Of a DNA stretch of 47,077 nucleotides, positions 4,930-21,633 are shown piece after piece. The notes beneath the pieces are model-generated. The model ran no database searches, was not told the origin of the DNA, and saw only the letters and a program-made list of their open reading frames with translations. Every line of letters begins with the position of its first letter. Position 1 is the stretch's first letter. Both the position numbers and the translations under genes were made by a program. The stretch covers positions 1-47,077 of the IMG/VR virus record IMGVR_UViG_2541047907_000002; one strand, given 5' to 3'. This DNA comes from a virus (taxonomy: Duplodnaviria; Heunggongvirae; Uroviricota; Caudoviricetes).

Positions 4930-5412
4930 GATGGCAGCCTCTAGTGATAAGTTAGTTAACTCACCACCATGGCTTTCCACGACCATAAAGGTGGTGAGAC
5001 GTACAGGGGTGGAAATACCGGTCACTAGAGAACCCGGCCAGCCTTTCGGCTGCCCTGCACGCCCCACCATAATGCGAATGAGGCTGTGCTTAGCGCATAA
5101 AAAAACCGCTTTGGCGCGGTTATGCGCTCTAGTGAACATCGGGTTTCCACGCCCGGCACCCGTTTTATAAGGTGCAGGTGCACTATAATTCCACCCGTTC
5201 TGGTTTTCAATAGCTACATTCAACATTTTCTCTACCTTTCATCACCGAAGTGAACTTTGTTGATGCGGTGCCTGGTGCCTCCAGGTGACGTTAACCAGTT
5301 AACAATTAACGCCGGAATACAGAAGGATTCCCGTTACGCCAGTAAAAGGCCCCATCACTGTTTTAACTGTTCCGCGTGCGCATAGCCGCATTCACCGCAT
5401 CACAAAATTCAC

Positions 5413-5458
5413 TTTAAAAAGGGCGGGTATCACGGGGAAAACAAAACGGATACCCGCC
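5413..5458 (-). terminator. Putative intrinsic terminator for leftward transcription
   Basis: Perfect 10 bp stem GGCGGGTATC/GATACCCGCC (5422-5431 / 5449-5458) with a 17 nt loop; on the minus strand it is followed by a U-run (plus-strand TTTAAAAA at 5413-5420). Confidence 0.35.
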
Positions 5459-12080: not shown

Positions 12081-12644
12081 ATGACTGAATTAACCAAAGA
12101 ACAATTAATCGAAGAAGCGAAATTAAAAATAGCGATTGCGAAATGCCACCCCAATTCAGAGATGGCACAGGTAGAGGGCGAGTTATTCAAAATTGCACTG
12201 GCATCGCTCGAAGCGGAACCGATAGCGTGGAAATGTGGCGAAAACATAATCCTGTTTAATCCTGACACTGTTGAAGCATACGCAAAACGTGCGGAGATAA
12301 CACCTGAACCACTATTCGCTGCCCCACCTGTGCCGGTAGTGCCTGAAGGGCTTGTTAAAGCGGTATGCTTCTATGAACAGGTAAAGCGTGAGAATCCGCC
12401 AGCCGAAACAGGAGCATGGAAAGATGCTGTTGATTGGGTACTCAAAGAGGCCTGCTGTGCTGCCATTCTGGGTAAAGCTGACAATCCACCAGCATCCGGC
12501 AATCAGGTTAGCGAATTAACCATGCTGGTTAAGCAATTAGTCAGTCAACTGAAGAAAGTGAAGCCGGACTGTAAATTACCGGGTAAGGTGATGGACTACC
12601 TGAAGCGAAACGGACTGATAAGCGCGGAGGATATTTTACTATGA
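12081..12644 (+). CDS. Hypothetical protein (187 aa)
   Basis: ATG 12081 preceded by AAGGAAAA; no family recognised. Confidence 0.5.
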   Translation: MTELTKEQLIEEAKLKIAIAKCHPNSEMAQVEGELFKIALASLEAEPIAWKCGENIILFNPDTVEAYAKRAEITPEPLFAAPPVPVVPEGLVKAVCFYEQVKRENPPAETGAWKDAVDWVLKEACCAAILGKADNPPASGNQVSELTMLVKQLVSQLKKVKPDCKLPGKVMDYLKRNGLISAEDILL

Positions 12645-12724
12645 CCTGGCCTGAGGCGTTCACAACGGCAGGAATTGCAATGGCGGTGGCGCTGGTGGTG
12701 TATTCGATTTGCCGCTGGGGATAA
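12641..12724 (+). CDS. Possible 27 aa hydrophobic peptide
   Basis: ATGA overlap with the upstream stop; MTWPEAFTTAGIAMAVALVVYSICRWG has a single predicted transmembrane segment. Confidence 0.2.
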   Translation: MTWPEAFTTAGIAMAVALVVYSICRWG

Positions 12725-12734
12725 ATCGCCGAAA

Positions 12735-12768
12735 AAAGATCCCGACACAAACATGAGCCGGGATCTTT
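12735..12768. terminator. Convergent intrinsic terminator between the plus-strand cluster and the minus-strand toxin-antitoxin operon
   Basis: 10 bp stem AAAGATCCCG/CGGGATCTTT; a U-run follows on the minus strand (plus-strand A6 at 12732-12737). Confidence 0.4.
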
Positions 12769-14888: not shown

Positions 14889-15248
14889 ATGCGTATAGAG
14901 TTTGTTTTGCCTTACCCGCCGACGGTGAACACCTACTGGCGACGTCGTGGCAGCACATATTTTGTATCAAAAGCCGGTGAGCGTTATCGCCGTGATGTGG
15001 CGCTTATTGTTCGCCAGCAGCGACTGAAATTAAACCTGTCCGGAAGGCTGGCAATAAAGATTATTGCAGAGCCACCGGATAAGCGCCGTCGTGACCTGGA
15101 CAATATTCTGAAAGCACCACTGGATGCACTGACACATGCGGGGTTGCTTATCGACGACGAGCAGTTTGATGAAATCAATATTGTGCGCGGTCAGGTCGTT
15201 CCTGGTGGTCGGCTGGGGATAAAAATCACAGAACTGGAGTGCGCATGA
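14889..15248 (+). CDS. rusA: RusA-family Holliday junction resolvase
   Basis: 119 aa beginning MRIEFVLPYPPTVNTYW with later DLDNILKAPLDAL segment, typical RusA; AGAGG upstream. Confidence 0.8.
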   Translation: MRIEFVLPYPPTVNTYWRRRGSTYFVSKAGERYRRDVALIVRQQRLKLNLSGRLAIKIIAEPPDKRRRDLDNILKAPLDALTHAGLLIDDEQFDEINIVRGQVVPGGRLGIKITELECA

Positions 15249-15934
15249 ATAACCAGTATTTACAGTTTGTTCGTGAGCAACTCATGATTGCCACCACCGA
15301 TTTGAGTGGATCAACAAAAGGGCAGCTTGAGGCCTGGCAGGAGAATGCCATGTTTGATACAGGGCGTTACAGGCGTAAAAAAATCCGGTACCGCGATGAA
15401 GTGACCGGAAAAATGATAACGCTGGATAATCCACCAATCCCGGGGAAACAATCGCTGGCGAAGGGGACGTCAATTCCTCTGGTAAGTCAGGTTGAGTTTT
15501 CGACATCATCATGGCGACGGGCAGTTCTGTCTCTTGAAGAACATCATAAAACCTGGTTGTTGTGGTGTTACAGCGGAAGTATTTGCTGGGAGTATCAGAT
15601 CGCGATAACACAGTGGGTGTGGAATGAATTTAAGGCGCAATCCGGTACCAGAAAAATTGCAGGGAAAACGCTGGAGCGCCTGAAAAAATTAATCTGGCTG
15701 GCGGCACAGGATGTGAAGAGTGAGCTGGCTGGGCGTGAAACTTATGAATATCAGGAACTGGCATTACTGGCGGGTGTGACAACAAAAAACTGGTCCAAAA
15801 CATTTACTGGTCACTGGGTTGCAATGAAAGACATTTTCCACCGGCTGGATAGTGAGGCCTTATTGTTTGTGATGAGAACACGTTCAGAACAAAAGACGGC
15901 ATTTTCAAAGAAAAGTATTGCAAAAGTAGATTAA
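15245..15934 (+). CDS. Putative late-gene antiterminator Q
   Basis: 229 aa; ATGA overlap with rusA; position (after rusA, before the late/lysis region) and Cys/Trp-rich core fit the Q family. Confidence 0.6.
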   Translation: MNNQYLQFVREQLMIATTDLSGSTKGQLEAWQENAMFDTGRYRRKKIRYRDEVTGKMITLDNPPIPGKQSLAKGTSIPLVSQVEFSTSSWRRAVLSLEEHHKTWLLWCYSGSICWEYQIAITQWVWNEFKAQSGTRKIAGKTLERLKKLIWLAAQDVKSELAGRETYEYQELALLAGVTTKNWSKTFTGHWVAMKDIFHRLDSEALLFVMRTRSEQKTAFSKKSIAKVD

Positions 15935-16023: not shown

Positions 16024-16146
16024 ATGCCTGAAAATTGGTGTAGTACGTTAAACGCGCTGGTGGTTGCGAATACTGGTCTTTCAGCTTGCTTGCTTTTTGG
16101 ACAAGAGTTATTGGTATGTCACGTTAACCAGAAAAGGAAAAAAGAC

Positions 16147-16344
16147 ATGCTAAAACAGCAGGATATGACCGAAACCGCCAGAGTGGTATTTAATGAATTA
16201 AGTGTCACCGAACCGGCGACCGTCGGGGAAATTGCGCAGAATACTTACCTTTCACGCGAACGCTGCCAGTTAATACTGACCCAGCTTGTTATGGCGGGTC
16301 TGGCAGATTATCAGTTCGGTTGTTACAGACGCCTTCCGCAGTGA
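16147..16344 (+). CDS. Small protein (65 aa), possible winged-helix regulator
   Basis: MLKQQDMTETARVVFNELSVTEPATVGEIAQNTYLSRERCQLILTQLVMAGL; a paralogous copy lies at 19791-20015. Confidence 0.45.
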   Translation: MLKQQDMTETARVVFNELSVTEPATVGEIAQNTYLSRERCQLILTQLVMAGLADYQFGCYRRLPQ

Positions 16345-16494: not shown

Positions 16495-17547
16495 ATGGTT
16501 GATACTGTAAAAATATCCAGTTGTGAGTTGGTCAACGCTGATTGCCTGGAATTTATCCGGACCTTACCTGAAAACTCTGTCGATCTGATAGTCACGGACC
16601 CACCATACTTTAAAGTGAAACCTGAGGGCTGGGATAACCAGTGGAAGGGCGACGATGATTACCTGCAATGGCTGGACCAGTGTCTGGCGCAGTTCTGGCG
16701 GCTACTGAAGCCTGCCGGAAGTCTCTACCTGTTCTGTGGGCATCGCCTGGCATCTGATATCGAAATCATGATGCGTGAGCGCTTTAATGTGCTTAACCAT
16801 ATTATCTGGGCTAAGCCGTCCGGACGCTGGAACGGGTGCAACAAGGAAAGCCTGCGGGTGTATTTCCCTGCCACAGAGCGCATTTTGTTTGCAGAACATT
16901 ATCAGGGACCGTATCGCCCGAAAGATGATGGCTATGAGGCGAAGGGCAGGGCACTGAAACAGCATGTGATGGCCCCGCTGATTGCTTACTTTCGTGATGC
17001 GCGTGAATCACTGGGAATAACGTCAAAACAGATAGCGGAAGCTACCGGAAAGAAAAACATGGCTTCCCACTGGTTCAGTGCCAGTCAGTGGCAGCTGCCG
17101 AACAAAGGCGATTATCTGAAATTACAGGCGCTGTTTGCCCGGGTTGCCGAAGAGAAGCATCAGCGCGGTGAACTGGAAAAGCCGCACCACCAGCTGGTCA
17201 GCACATACAGTGAACTGAACCGGCAATATGCCAGTCTGCTGGAGGAGTACAAATCTCTTCGGCGTTATTTTTCCGTATCGGCTGCCGTTCCGTATACGGA
17301 TGTCTGGACGCACAAGCCCGTGCAGTATTATCCGGGCAAACATCCATGTGAAAAACCGTCGGATATGTTGCGTCAGATAATTACCGCCAGCAGTCGTCCG
17401 GGTGACCTGGTTGCGGACTTTTTTATGGGGTCGGGGTCAACAGTAAAAGCAGCACTGGCGCTGGGGCGCAGGGTATTAGGTGTTGAGCTTGAGTCAGAAC
17501 GTTTTGAGCAGACAGTGAAAGAGGTAAGTGGTCAGGGGTATATTTGA
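16495..17547 (+). CDS. Orphan DNA methyltransferase, beta-class (N6-adenine or N4-cytosine)
   Basis: 350 aa; N-terminal IVTDPPYF (motif IV) and C-terminal FFMGSGST (motif I) in the beta-class order; no restriction endonuclease candidate nearby. Confidence 0.75.
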   Translation: MVDTVKISSCELVNADCLEFIRTLPENSVDLIVTDPPYFKVKPEGWDNQWKGDDDYLQWLDQCLAQFWRLLKPAGSLYLFCGHRLASDIEIMMRERFNVLNHIIWAKPSGRWNGCNKESLRVYFPATERILFAEHYQGPYRPKDDGYEAKGRALKQHVMAPLIAYFRDARESLGITSKQIAEATGKKNMASHWFSASQWQLPNKGDYLKLQALFARVAEEKHQRGELEKPHHQLVSTYSELNRQYASLLEEYKSLRRYFSVSAAVPYTDVWTHKPVQYYPGKHPCEKPSDMLRQIITASSRPGDLVADFFMGSGSTVKAALALGRRVLGVELESERFEQTVKEVSGQGYI

Positions 17548-17667
17548 TAACAAAATCTTAAATATTTCGCTCATTTATTGTTAGCGTTCTTAATATTGGG
17601 TATTTTCAACAGTGCAGGATAACCCTGTAACGAAACTTAATCTGGTTCCATCATGAAAGTCTTTGCC

Positions 17668-17700
17668 AGTAGTCTCCGGATGGCTGGCTTTTTTTTGCGC
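17668..17700 (+). terminator. Putative intrinsic terminator downstream of the methyltransferase
   Basis: Short stem GCCAG/CTGGC followed by T8 (GCTGGCTTTTTTTT). Confidence 0.4.
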
Positions 17701-17780
17701 CAAATCGAAAATATTTTACAGTCTGATTGTGTGGGCGTATTTTTGTGATTTTTGTAACGTTTTCAGGCGTTTTGTATTAA

Positions 17781-18001
17781 TAGACTTTTTTCAGCGGCGC
17801 ATCCCGTGACGCAGCGGGGTTGAATGGCTGGTCTCCTTCACAAGCGCATACTGCGTGGAATCGCACAGCGGGTCATGGTTTAAGCCAGCCAGTGACTCAT
17901 CGGTAAAAATCCGACGCCGTCATGCTAATGACTATTCCATACTATCTGTCTGAATCCTGAGTGTCCTGAAGCCGGTAAATGAACTCTGTTACCGGCTTTT
18001 T
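17781..18001 (+). ncRNA. Candidate small RNA unit A (paralog of unit B)
   Basis: No ORF of 60 aa or more on either strand; conserved 5' block CAGCGGCGCATCCCGTGACGCAGCGGGG and internal block CCAGTGACTCATCGGTAAAAATCCGACGCC shared with unit B; ends in a 10 bp stem AAGCCGGTAA/TTACCGGCTT plus T5; upstream TGTATTAAT resembles an extended -10. Confidence 0.3.
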
Positions 18002-18189
18002 ATATCGGTATGTTGTGGAGATGCCGAAAGCCTCACATTTTTTGTGGTTGAATATCACCCTGTGAGTGAAAATAAGGTGCAGATAAAAAACTGCATGGTT
18101 TTTGCGTAATATCAAAAAAGCATTCCAGCCCCACAGGCTTTATAATTTTTTGTGATAGCCATAACTTTTCAGAATGTTCTGTGTTTTGT

Positions 18190-18400
18190 AGACTTTTTAA
18201 AGCGGCGCATCCCGTGATGCAGCGGGGCTGAGTGGTCAGGGGTTCCTTCAGATGTACAATTCACAGAAACACTCAGTGGGCCATGGTATTTGGCTGCCAG
18301 TGACTCATCGGTAAAAATCCGACGCCGCTGCTCCTTGTTCTTCACATGGTTTTCTTAGCGTATTTTAAGCCGGTTGATAAACTCCACTTCCGGCTTTCTT
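18190..18400 (+). ncRNA. Candidate small RNA unit B (paralog of unit A)
   Basis: Same two conserved blocks as unit A with divergent middle and 3' parts; ends in stem AAGCCGG/CCGGCTT followed by a T-run. Confidence 0.3.
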
Positions 18401-18754
18401 TTTTCAGTATATTACGGAGACTTAAGGTTTCTCTTTCAATCAGGTCTGATACGACTCGCAGGTGCAGGATTCGTTTAGAAGAACACCATGTAAACGCCCT
18501 TCAGCTCAGGGGCGTTTACCGGGAGGCATTTAATGCCATATGTGAGGTGACAAATCAGATAACACGCGCGTCATGGGAAAAAACGGTTAAGCAATTCCAT
18601 GACACTCTGGTGGTTCGGTTTGACATTGAAGAGGCATGGGCGGAGCGGCAGTTAAAAAAGGTAACCAGATAACAAGGTTGATTTTTCCGGAATCTGTGGT
18701 AAATTCACCCTAACGATGGGCGTTTTATGCCTGACGTTAGAAGAATTTTTACAG

Positions 18755-18776
18755 CCCGCCATAGAGCGGGTTTTTT
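18755..18776 (+). terminator. Intrinsic terminator, truncated copy 3 of the terminator-leader module
   Basis: Stem CCCGC/GCGGG followed by TTTTTT; next ~45 nt resemble the leaders after the terminators at 15999 and 19647. Confidence 0.4.
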
Positions 18777-18911
18777 GTGCCCGAAAAGCGGTGCATAACG
18801 TTAAACGTGATGGCGATTGTGCAATGAGTTTCTCCTGCTCTGAAGTCTCTTGACTGCATGGAATCTCCTTTGTTATGTAAGGTGAGTCAATGTTTTTAAA
18901 TTGTTAGAGAT

Positions 18912-19631: not shown

Positions 19632-19790
19632 AATCTCCTGAGTAATACCCGCCGTTGAGCGGTTTTTTTTATGCTCCAAAAGCGGTGTGGTATATTAAAC
19701 GCGCTGGCGGTTGCGAATACCGGTTTTCAGCTCGCTGGCTTTTTCGACAAGATTATTGGTATGTCACGTTATCCTGAAAAGGTAAAAGAC

Positions 19791-20015
19791 ATGTTAAAAC
19801 AGCGGGATATGACAGAAACCGCCAGATTTGTGTTTAATGAGTTAAGCGTCAGCGAACCCCCGACGGTCGGGGATAGTGCGCAGAATGCTTACCTTCCACG
19901 AGAACGCTGTCAGTTACTCCTAACTCAGCTTGTCATAGCTGGGCTGATGAGTGTTAGCGGCACCTGTCAGTCATTTGCTTATGTGTTGATGAGAATTTAC
20001 TTTTTGGGGCTATAA
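19791..20015 (+). CDS. Paralog of the 65 aa small protein, with an altered C-terminus
   Basis: First ~48 residues closely match the protein at 16147-16344; an apparent ~78 bp deletion relative to copy 1 fuses the reading frame to downstream sequence; preceded by terminator-leader copy 2 (about 19647-19668). Confidence 0.4.
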   Translation: MLKQRDMTETARFVFNELSVSEPPTVGDSAQNAYLPRERCQLLLTQLVIAGLMSVSGTCQSFAYVLMRIYFLGL

Positions 20016-20051: not shown

Positions 20052-20765
20052 ATGGATGTTGTCTGTTCAGTTATCATGGTTTGCTCCCCAATTAATATTT
20101 TTCTTGAAAAGGATACGTTGTCACTTAAGCCCGGCTCAATCGTTCTGGCCACCAAATGCATCAGGGAGCTTTTCCTTATGCATTATGGCAAAGTTAAAAT
20201 TGTCGATATAAGCCATTCTATAGTAAGTCAATATCTGGAAAGCCAGCATAAGCTGACAAGAGGTCCTCTGACTGACATTCCGCTTTACTTGTTGCTGGAC
20301 CCCAACAATCCTGCGTTGGCTGCGGCTTTAATTACCAGCCAGAGATTTTCCGGAGAGATCACGGATATGTTTCTTATGATGGCCTGCCTGTCGCTGTTTG
20401 AATCAGATGAACGGATGTCATTATTTTTAATTGGATGTGTATCCAGTATAAGTGTCAAAGTCAGAGCGATAATTCAAACAGATATATCAGCAAGCTGGAC
20501 GCTTGGTGCGATTGCTCTACAGTTGCATATGAGTGAGAGCTTGTTAAAGAAAAAACTCAAGGATGAAGGTCTCAGGTTCAGTAATTTGTTACTTGAGGAA
20601 CGGATGCGGGTTGCTGTAAATATGTTATGTTCCCGGCATGGATATGGACAGGCTCTAGCAGAAAAATGCGGTTATTCAAGTAGGTCCTACTTTATCTCTG
20701 TATTTCACCGCTATTATGGCTTCCCGCCAGACAGATATGTATCTATGCAAAGGCTTGATTTTTGA
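20052..20765 (+). CDS. AraC-family transcriptional regulator
   Basis: 237 aa; C-terminal double-HTH region WTLGAIALQLHMSESLLKKKLKDEG...GYSSRSYFISVFHRYYGFPPDRY typical of AraC/XylS. Confidence 0.7.
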   Translation: MDVVCSVIMVCSPINIFLEKDTLSLKPGSIVLATKCIRELFLMHYGKVKIVDISHSIVSQYLESQHKLTRGPLTDIPLYLLLDPNNPALAAALITSQRFSGEITDMFLMMACLSLFESDERMSLFLIGCVSSISVKVRAIIQTDISASWTLGAIALQLHMSESLLKKKLKDEGLRFSNLLLEERMRVAVNMLCSRHGYGQALAEKCGYSSRSYFISVFHRYYGFPPDRYVSMQRLDF

Positions 20766-20792: not shown

Positions 20793-20868
20793 GGCCCTTT
20801 AGCTCAGTGGTGAGAGCGAGCGACTCATAATCGCCAGGTCGCTGGTTCAAATCCAGCAAGGGCCACCA
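20793..20868 (+). tRNA. tRNA with CAU anticodon, ileX-like (Ile2/lysidine type)
   Basis: Hand-folded cloverleaf: acceptor GGCCCTT/AAGGGCC, D-stem GCTC/GAGC, anticodon loop CTCATAA, T-loop TTCAAAT, 3' CCA; very similar to E. coli ileX as recalled. Confidence 0.8.
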
Positions 20869-20869
20869 A

Positions 20870-20946
20870 CCGCCACTAGCTCATCAGGAAAGAGCATCAA
20901 CCTTCTAAGTTGACGGCGCGAGGTTCGAGTCCTCGGTGGTGGGCCA
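20870..20946 (+). tRNA. tRNA-Arg (UCU anticodon)
   Basis: Hand-folded: acceptor CCGCCAC/GTGGTGG (one G-U pair), anticodon loop CTTCTAA, T-arm CGAGG-TTCGAGT-CCTCG, 3' CCA; unusual C1 start. Confidence 0.6.
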
Positions 20947-20948
20947 GT

Positions 20949-21024
<76 letters not shown>

Positions 21025-21027
21025 TAT

Positions 21028-21102
<75 letters not shown>

Positions 21103-21449
21103 ACATTTGCAAAAGCCTTATTGCAGCACTGGCGTATTTTTTATTACGTGGGAGCAGGGAAGGCATCCTGTTCTCTGGCTAAGATTTTGGGCCAGGTTAG
21201 CCTCAGTGCTGGATTTTTTACGACAGCAGAATGGTGCATTATCGGTGGAGATTTTGTTTTTCCTGGCAGGGGCGGTGATGCATCATTCTGGTGTTGTAAA
21301 TAACACTGTCGGGGTGTTCCTCAGAGCGAGGGTGGTTAAAAGAGTCGGTTTAGCGGGAAATCACAGTATTCATACAGGACGGAATACTTCGGGAGGCACC
21401 CGACACCTCGGTTTTATTACAATTAAGAATGTATCTCTTGCATTGACCA

Positions 21450-21474
21450 ACCGCCGTATCCGGCGGTTTTTTTA
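21450..21474 (+). terminator. Intrinsic terminator downstream of the tRNA array
   Basis: Stem ACCGCCG/CGGCGGT with 4 nt loop followed by T7. Confidence 0.5.
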
Positions 21475-21633
21475 TTCGATTTCTTCATGGTTCGCTATTG
21501 TGGACCTTTTCCACGTATTTTCTGGCGGTTATTATGACGGCTTGTTTCTTTGTTCATAAGAGGATTGATGCTGTGATCTCTTATGCAGATATCAGAGCAA
21601 AACAGGCCGAAATTCTGAAGGCTGAGCAGGAAT

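Follow-up and report, generated by a model that had tools for sequence, protein, structure and literature searches.

The 47,077-nt stretch of DNA analyzed here (IMG/VR record IMGVR_UViG_2541047907_000002; hereafter, the window) is a lambdoid prophage of Escherichia coli integrated beside ompW. It harbors two non-coding units on the plus strand, unit A (17793-18001) and unit B (18201-18405), each running from the start of a first helix, P1, to the end of a U-run. A sequence-only reading of the window had proposed that the units are structured, terminator-capped prophage RNA genes, paralogous to each other, that match no known small RNA (sRNA). The first part of this proposal was upheld, but the second was not. 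Units A and B are strongly diverged, previously unannotated copies of the STnc100/PasD superfamily (EcOnc27, sRNA103, EcOnc13), as recognized by Rfam, below its cut-off, and by a covariance model that we built from other phages. The kind of RNA is already known, and the two units constitute a new, strongly diverged subfamily of this poorly understood superfamily. We favor, with moderate confidence, the interpretation that units A and B would be independently transcribed, terminator-ended, Hfq-associated sRNAs of this subfamily that act in trans.

The family assignment was drawn from two model searches. At the curated Rfam thresholds, the window yielded C4, isrK and tRNAs only. With E-value reporting, the STnc100 model (RF02076) aligned over its full length with unit A (27.6 bits) and unit B (22.5 bits), and this match held in searches of 1.4 kb and of the whole window. 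A search of Rfam had been put forward as a check on the units; it did find STnc100, albeit only below the cut-off of 47 bits, which none of four copies in the window attained (the other two, copies C and D, scored 35.8 and 27.1 bits). We collected canonical STnc100 cores from IMG/VR by sequence pattern (41 sequence variants) and aligned 25 such cores from other phages to generate the covariance model R1, which contains zero window sequence. R1 was run on the whole 47-kb window with filters off and gave four matches, with rough E-values: copy C (5261-5401, minus strand, 62.3 bits), unit B (18199-18332, plus strand, 42.0 bits, E 7e-11), copy D (21308-21413, plus strand, 35.1 bits) and unit A (17791-17924, plus strand, 34.0 bits, E 1.6e-8). 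The best background score was 8.7 bits, and the sub-threshold Rfam STnc100 matches fell at the same four sites. PasD2 of enteropathogenic E. coli (EPEC), an RNA validated by Northern blot and by RIL-seq (sequencing of interacting RNAs after their ligation), was extracted at its published coordinates; it scored 36.8 bits with R1, in the range of units A and B, and the 5' end mapped for it coincides with the first P1 base.

The repeat finder and the pairwise alignment agreed that the units are paralogs with shared blocks. Two families of direct repeats (17781-17827 and 18189-18235, 89% identity; 17858-17919 and 18266-18327, 84% identity) are each spaced by 408 nt, placing units A and B in a common register, and a weaker third family lies upstream (17740-17762 and 18147-18169). 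The core of about 140 nt aligned between the units with zero indels, the units having diverged by about 23%, and the conserved blocks contain runs of identity of 27 and 32 nt. The longer run is the 3' block GCCAGTGACTCATCGGTAAAAATCCGACGCCG, which is the same in unit A (17888-17919) and unit B (18296-18327) and makes up the final 32 nt of the second repeat block. A pattern linking the 5' and 3' blocks matched just these two sites in the window and was reproduced in 0 of 100 shuffles. The 5' block had been quoted correctly except for its first base, which differs between the units (C in A, A in B). The middles had been described as divergent and do diverge; the 40-50 nt or so that join the core to the terminator diverge just as much, and the similarity of the tails is limited to the terminator hairpin. 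The units measure about 205-209 nt when counted from P1 through the last base of the U-run. As reported earlier, there is no open reading frame (ORF) of 60 aa or more within 17548-18345; the two longest, of 57 and 58 aa, lie on the minus strand.

Both units retain the nested helices P1, P2, P4 and P5 in the order of STnc100, as seen in the full-length Rfam and R1 alignments, and covariation across the family supports these helices. In the unit A core (17793-17920, plus strand), P1 pairs 17794-17799 with 17915-17920, P2 pairs 17802-17807 with 17814-17819, P2a pairs 17819-17821 with 17867-17869, P4 pairs 17870-17875 with 17893-17898 and P5 pairs 17900-17903 with 17911-17914. The corresponding helices of the unit B core (18201-18328, plus strand) are P1 (18202-18207/18323-18328), P2 (18210-18215/18222-18227), P2a (18227-18229/18275-18277), P4 (18278-18283/18301-18306, with one mismatch) and P5 (18308-18311/18319-18322). 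P1, P2, P2a, P4 and P5 are all retained in the two units through compensatory changes. Relative to the canonical AUGGUG/CACCAU, P1 is GCGGCG/CGCCGY in units A and B, which includes two U-A to C-G exchanges, and the closing pair of P5 has changed from C-G to U-A. In both units, P2 keeps a stem of 6 bp, rich in G+C, and a loop of 6 nt. The 3-bp helix P2a (GCN/NGC), which closes the variable region, also covaries: its pairs are G-C, U.G and U-A in unit A and G.U, C-G and U-A in unit B. Between the units, nine substitutions fall at paired positions, only one of which breaks a pair; the insertion and the P4 loop hold the remaining substitutions.

We ran the covariation check that the sequence-only reading had called for on an alignment of 46 family matches (45 distinct sequences), including the four window copies and PasD2. 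In the five nested helices, 96.3% of the cells were paired and 20 of the 26 pairs had changed on both sides; none of 500 shuffles attained any of the observed measures. The alignment was fitted to the model and is biased towards the structure, but the control in which the partners were slid by 1-3 columns is decisive here: it lowered pairing to 39-46%. At locus L125 (7286-7520, equivalent to 17769-18009 of the window), unit A occurs as a natural variant with a T>C change at 17820 that turns the U.G pair of P2a into C-G; in its terminator, C17972>T keeps a G.U in the stem, 1 nt is deleted from the loop and A18002>T lengthens the U tract.

In addition to the nested helices, the segment that follows P2a is complementary to the P4 loop in nearly all members, at the same position and with varying sequences. 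This pairing, P3, is an H-type pseudoknot across the family. Among the family members, 34 different strand-pair sequences were found, and about two-thirds of them scored at least 5.5 with a script written for the purpose, which is not an established test. Examples are AUCAGCA/UGCUGAU, CUGGUG/CACCAG, UGCCAGG/CCUGGCA, CAUGACCAG/UUGGUUAUG, UCCAGUC/GACUGGG and UUAACC/GGUUAA, and in PasD AAUGAUC/GAUCAUU. In unit A, P3 is a perfect 7-bp helix (17825-17831/17885-17891, UGGCUGG/CCAGCCA; p 0.01 relative to loop shuffling). For unit B, a reading by eye in the register of unit A gives 6 bp with one bulge (18233-18239/18294-18299, UGG(U)CAG/CUGCCA), and the contiguous helix is weak. The strands of P3 are out of register in both the MAFFT and the model-fitted alignments. 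The pseudoknot is not in the Rfam STnc100 model, and the 2026 preprint on PasD and STnc100 (bioRxiv 10.64898/2026.05.13.724894) nowhere uses the word. The members with P3 are from loci L133-L252 and L283 and from the window. Two other pairings were tried and rejected: a kissing loop between P2 and P5 (GUGC/GCAC), which is not conserved in PasD or in units A and B, and an alternative pairing of P2 with the terminator, which is confined to one canonical E. coli subgroup, being absent from the remaining members as well as from A, B and D.

Sigma-70 promoters of their own (TTGACN-18-TAnnnT or the extended -10 element TGTTAAAAA) precede the canonical copies, which start at the first P1 base and have strong terminators. 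A candidate promoter for unit A, predicted by reading the sequence, lies at 17752-17786 on the plus strand and consists of TTGTAA (17752-17757), an 18-nt spacer with TG at 17773-17774, and ATTAAT (17776-17781). The TGTATTAAT noted earlier upstream of unit A is present at 17773-17781, and in the Rfam STnc100 alignment this upstream stretch is aligned with the promoter part of the model (TGTTAAAAA). A TAGACT (17781-17786) that overlaps the ATTAAT is conserved in both units. The region upstream of unit B (18147-18200, plus strand), which was co-duplicated with the unit, includes TTTTTGTGAT and the TAGACT at 18189-18194, and a perfect TATAAT is found upstream of unit B at 18141-18146. Promoter-like elements are plausible for unit A and weaker for unit B, and a consensus promoter scan called neither. 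Each unit closes in a stem-loop followed by a T-run, as had been observed. The intrinsic terminator of unit A (17970-18001, plus strand) has a 9-bp stem (17970-17978/17989-17997), a 10-nt loop and UUUUU; that of unit B (18366-18405, plus strand) has the stem AAGCCGG/CCGGCUU (18367-18373/18390-18396) followed by UUUCUUUUUU (TTTCTTTTTT in DNA). With loops of more than 8 nt, both escaped a simple terminator scan. The linkers in front of the terminators lie at 17921-17969 in unit A, where the predicted fold is mostly unpaired and the sequence pyrimidine-rich, and at 18329-18365 in unit B, where the sequence (CUGCUCCUUGUUCUUCACAUGG...) has no relation to that of unit A; both are on the plus strand.

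The relatives suggest how the units might work. The prophage RNA STnc100, which lies, for instance, 75 nt downstream of stx2B (PMC12370729), overlaps the Hfq-bound sRNA EcOnc27/sRNA103 (PMC4104026, PMC7873438, PMC12711010). E. coli EDL933 has 11 STnc100 copies, all 11 with transcriptome reads and one confirmed by Northern blot (PMC5331693). The 2026 preprint puts STnc100 together with PasD1 and PasD2 (bioRxiv 10.64898/2026.05.13.724894), which are abundant sRNAs of EPEC whose stability depends on Hfq (PMC8550237). Relatives are known to be transcribed, to bind Hfq and to occupy the late-region 'moron' site (PMC4104026, PMC8550237, PMC5331693, PMC7873438). In our proposed model, units A and B form a tandem pair of genes, each for a non-coding RNA of about 205 nt that would start at or just before P1. 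P1 closes a junction holding the hairpins P2 and P5, helix P2a and the P3 pseudoknot, with the variable insertion placed inside the pseudoknot, and this compact 5' domain would serve as a stabilizing scaffold. A mostly unpaired, pyrimidine-rich linker of about 40-50 nt and the intrinsic terminator complete the RNA. As PasD and EcOnc27 suggest by analogy, both RNAs would be made in the lysogen, and Hfq would bind and stabilize them via the U-tail of the terminator. Base-pairing with mRNAs of the host or the prophage might then be their mode of action in trans. Of this model, the analysis shows the fold, the homology and the position in the genome, whereas transcription, Hfq binding, the place of the seed and action in trans are inferred. 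The sequence-only reading had assigned target pairing to the variable middle, which is not supported: in the family, the middle is an insertion inside the pseudoknotted core, and the only predicted seed in a validated relative, PasD, is in the 3' linker. That proposed seed is UGUGAG, and most RIL-seq fragments of PasD map to the 3' 50 nt or so. The 3' linkers of units A and B are therefore the most plausible candidate pairing regions, and since the two linkers differ, the units may have different targets.

Several results weigh against this interpretation. The Rfam scores of units A and B are far under the RF02076 gathering cut-off. The promoter elements are weak, particularly those of unit B. 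Folding, which had also been suggested as a check, gave energies that were not significantly better than those of shuffles (z -0.9 and -0.5). The near-invariant loops of P2 (UGUGCGGA) and P5 (GGGAGGCA) are replaced in units A and B, as is the near-invariant AAU of J1/2, although even PasD and copies C and D still have GGGAGGCA. Should function reside in the replaced loops, A and B may act in another way or be inactive. The near-invariant blocks AAUCCCCCUGUGCGGAGGGGC and ACUCACCGGGAGGCACCCGGCACC are likewise not kept; what A and B share with the canonical blocks is just AUCCC..GC.G.GGGG and ACUCA.CGG...CCG.C.CC. The PasD seed behind the linker analogy had weak motif statistics in its source. 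A scan of the translation-start regions of the window returned no target above shuffles, and a k-mer target search in the window recovered just the antisense strand of the units themselves. There was also no AsxR or AgvB match in the window at E up to 1, so that the units differ from the convergent dyads of O157 prophages.

The strongest competing explanation, which we nevertheless regard as unlikely, is that the conserved pseudoknotted core rather than a seed is the functional part, binding a protein or a small ligand as a decoy, sponge or sensor, with units A and B, whose P2 and P5 loops differ, representing a changed specificity. Across the 41 canonical variants, two blocks (20 and 24 nt) show full or almost full identity while the middle is hypervariable, a degree of conservation beyond that of an ordinary sRNA scaffold; the junction and the pseudoknot covary extensively, and several copies occur per prophage, with tandem arrays elsewhere. 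The published seeds and targets of the family are, moreover, weak or in silico only (PMC7873438). Against this, no candidate partner gene is adjacent throughout, as the genes downstream vary (esterase, holin, Q remnant, isrK), and no Rfam riboswitch or ribozyme model matched in the window. The association of members with Hfq, and the many RIL-seq chimeras that PasD forms with mRNAs (PMC8550237, PMC4104026), also speak against it. A broader form of the same idea, to which we give similarly limited credence, is that the superfamily is more than a group of sRNAs with seeds: it would be a widespread, tandemly amplified pseudoknotted fold of lambdoid prophages whose core would bind a specific partner (a protein, another RNA or a ligand) and whose hypervariable insertion would diversify under conflict-driven selection, units A and B, with both loops replaced and all helices kept, having switched specificity.

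It is improbable, and more so than a function of the core, that units A and B are decaying, non-functional STnc100-like duplicates stranded at a recombination joint. The methylase gene and a truncated Q gene do flank the units, the segment is missing from related prophages, the invariant loop motifs of the family are lost, and in unit B the promoter is poor, P3 is bulged and P4 contains a mismatch. Nor was the subfamily detected in the collections where a valid search could have revealed it, namely complete E. coli genomes, deposited phages, IMG/VR and the metagenomes of the Joint Genome Institute (JGI). However, every helix is intact after about 23% divergence between the units, with stem substitutions that are nearly all compensatory or wobble-preserving. 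Both terminators are intact, the blocks identical over 27 and 32 nt indicate selection, and the changes in the L125 natural variant preserve the structure.

We consider it very unlikely that the units are cis-acting leaders or attenuators of the late operon, or riboswitch-like elements gating read-through to the lysis genes. Their succession of P1-closed junction, linker and terminator resembles a transcriptional riboswitch, and they sit inside the Q-dependent late transcription unit. Polymerase modified by the Q protein of lambdoid phages would, however, ignore such terminators. There is no conserved downstream gene, and inspection of 33 copies revealed no conserved antiterminator pairing; the family also has its own promoters and produces discrete RNAs in uninduced lysogens (PMC5331693, PMC8550237). 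That the units encode small proteins is the least credible explanation, since among the ORFs of 28-58 aa on both strands no short frame common to A and B was found (the 28-aa frame starts with TTG in A where B has CTG, and the minus-strand frames are 29 and 58 aa), and the substitutions follow base-pairing rather than codon constraints, in agreement with the earlier call of a non-coding region.

The surroundings of the units are those of a late-region module. The host DNA adjoining the integrase, on the ompW side, is 100% identical to E. coli chromosomes. RusA is followed by Q (15239-15934), a phrog_331 gene (16024-16344, plus strand) and a DNA methyltransferase gene (16495-17547), and then by units A and B. 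Downstream lies the remnant of a second, different Q gene (about 18520-18672, plus strand), comprising the C-terminal 50 aa or so (phrog_127/PF03589), with a strong terminator at 18753-18772. This remnant and terminator (18520-18780) are probably a leftover PR'/tR' module, which might give a short StxS-like leader RNA. A TfpB-like gene separates the terminator from a second phrog_331 gene (19671-20015, plus strand), a paralog of the first, which is followed by a gene for an AraC-family regulator (phrog_1450; 20052-20765, plus strand), directly upstream of four tRNA genes (20793-21102, plus strand; Met/Ile-type CAT, Arg TCT, Thr TGT and Gly TCC); the holins (from 22208) and the endolysin follow. 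Units A and B are therefore located between Q and the holins on the plus strand, which is the strand of the late operon. In related prophages of complete E. coli genomes, the methylase gene leads directly to the tRNAs, the segment is missing and phrog_331 is single, which places the units at a recombination joint in the late-region 'moron' zone. The two phrog_331 paralogs flanking the segment indicate recombination between two late-region modules. STnc100 occupies this site in 933W and PhiR12_1 (E2348/69 was also compared), and Hfq-binding sRNAs cluster here in O157 prophages (PMC4104026, PMC7873438).

The window contains two further family copies. Copy C (core 5261-5401, minus strand; R1 62.3 bits, E 9e-17) is located 85 nt upstream of isrK (5099-5175) and C4 (4987-5074); it has no terminator of its own, and a terminator precedes it at about 5410-5455. 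Both sides have changed in all five of its P2 pairs and in one pair of P5, and its P3 is CAGUUAA/UUAACUG. A homolog of copy C is found at positions 12613-12750 of locus L134. Copy D has a shorter core (21308-21413, plus strand; R1 35.1 bits, E 8e-9; Rfam STnc100 over the full model) within an element (21308-21478) that immediately follows the tRNA cluster and is completed by a linker and a terminator of its own (21449-21478). Its P5, UCGGG...CCCGA, lies between the canonical and the A/B forms. An ORF at 21107-21559 encloses copy D and, having no PHROG match, is probably not a gene. In other prophages, tandem arrays of 2-5 STnc100-type cores are common, with a period of about 240-270 nt, as in loci L134 (406-1000), L160 (10728-11775), L162 (4320-5379) and L214 (8736-9631). 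Each core of these arrays has a promoter-like sequence and a terminator, and the insertions differ. A distinct weaker subtype (22.4 bits) was seen between two canonical copies in 28 loci.

Apart from draft assemblies with this prophage, the A/B subfamily was seen in none of the collections in which a valid search could have revealed it. BLAST searches of the units against 5,426 complete E. coli genomes, in near and distant modes, and against 50,697 phage records yielded no match to the units; only about 95 nt following the methylase gene were matched. A 21-mer of the 3' block had no exact match in IMG/VR. A scan of IMG/VR for P5 variants (ACTCATCGG or ACTCADCGG) recovered one mutated canonical copy and no copy of the A/B type, and the same scan of JGI metagenomes recovered chance matches and that same canonical type only. 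The subfamily was found in at least nine NCBI draft assemblies, all of which carry this prophage; E. coli assemblies with the prophage include GCA_964055205.1, GCA_033341655.1 and GCA_005390265.1. The methylase gene is identical in the nine and their units are identical or nearly so, and they therefore add almost no covariation.

Standard annotation misses all four copies, so that the repertoire of the family in pathogenic E. coli has probably been undercounted. Family members are found beside Shiga toxin genes and bind Hfq; links to the expression of virulence genes and to clinical outcome have been described. Neither the covarying pseudoknotted core nor the frequent tandem arrays are captured by the Rfam model. 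With the fold kept and the invariant loops replaced, units A and B represent a natural experiment on which parts of the RNA carry the function.

Three groups of known RNAs invite comparison. The anti-sRNAs AsxR and AgvB and the RNA StxS share the genomic niche of units A and B, from the late promoter to the lysis genes, and display variable segments on a conserved scaffold (PMC4104026, PMC7873438). They are simple hairpin RNAs of 51-74 nt or a PR' leader, structurally unrelated to the units, and their Rfam families RF02702 and RF02703 had no match in the window. The dyads of the O157 type combine EcOnc27 with AsxR and EcOnc06 with AgvB; the strand opposite the A and B terminators has no U-run. 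PasD1 and PasD2 of EPEC E2348/69 (EcOnc13 homologs) are, as A and B are, diverged members, with PasD2 at 36.8 bits against 34-42 bits for the units, and they share the P3 pseudoknot and the linker plus terminator, with the PasD 5' end at the first P1 base. PasD differs in that it keeps the AAU and GGGAGGC motifs, its P5 is reduced, and it is experimentally validated; the similarity of the PasD linker and seed (UGUGAG) to the A and B linkers is within the range of shuffles. From STnc100 (RF02076; EcOnc27 in O157 Sakai, sRNA103 in EDL933), the units differ in J1/2 (AAU in STnc100, CAU in A/B), in the P2 loop ((C)UGUGCGG(A) versus GACGCA) and in the P5 loop (GAGGCAC versus UAAAAAU); they have no BLAST-level similarity to it and lack a convergent partner of the AsxR/AgvB type. 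They nevertheless share with STnc100 the helix order, the P1-closed junction, P3, the variable insertion, the linker and terminator, the length class, the strand and the late-region position in lambdoid prophages.

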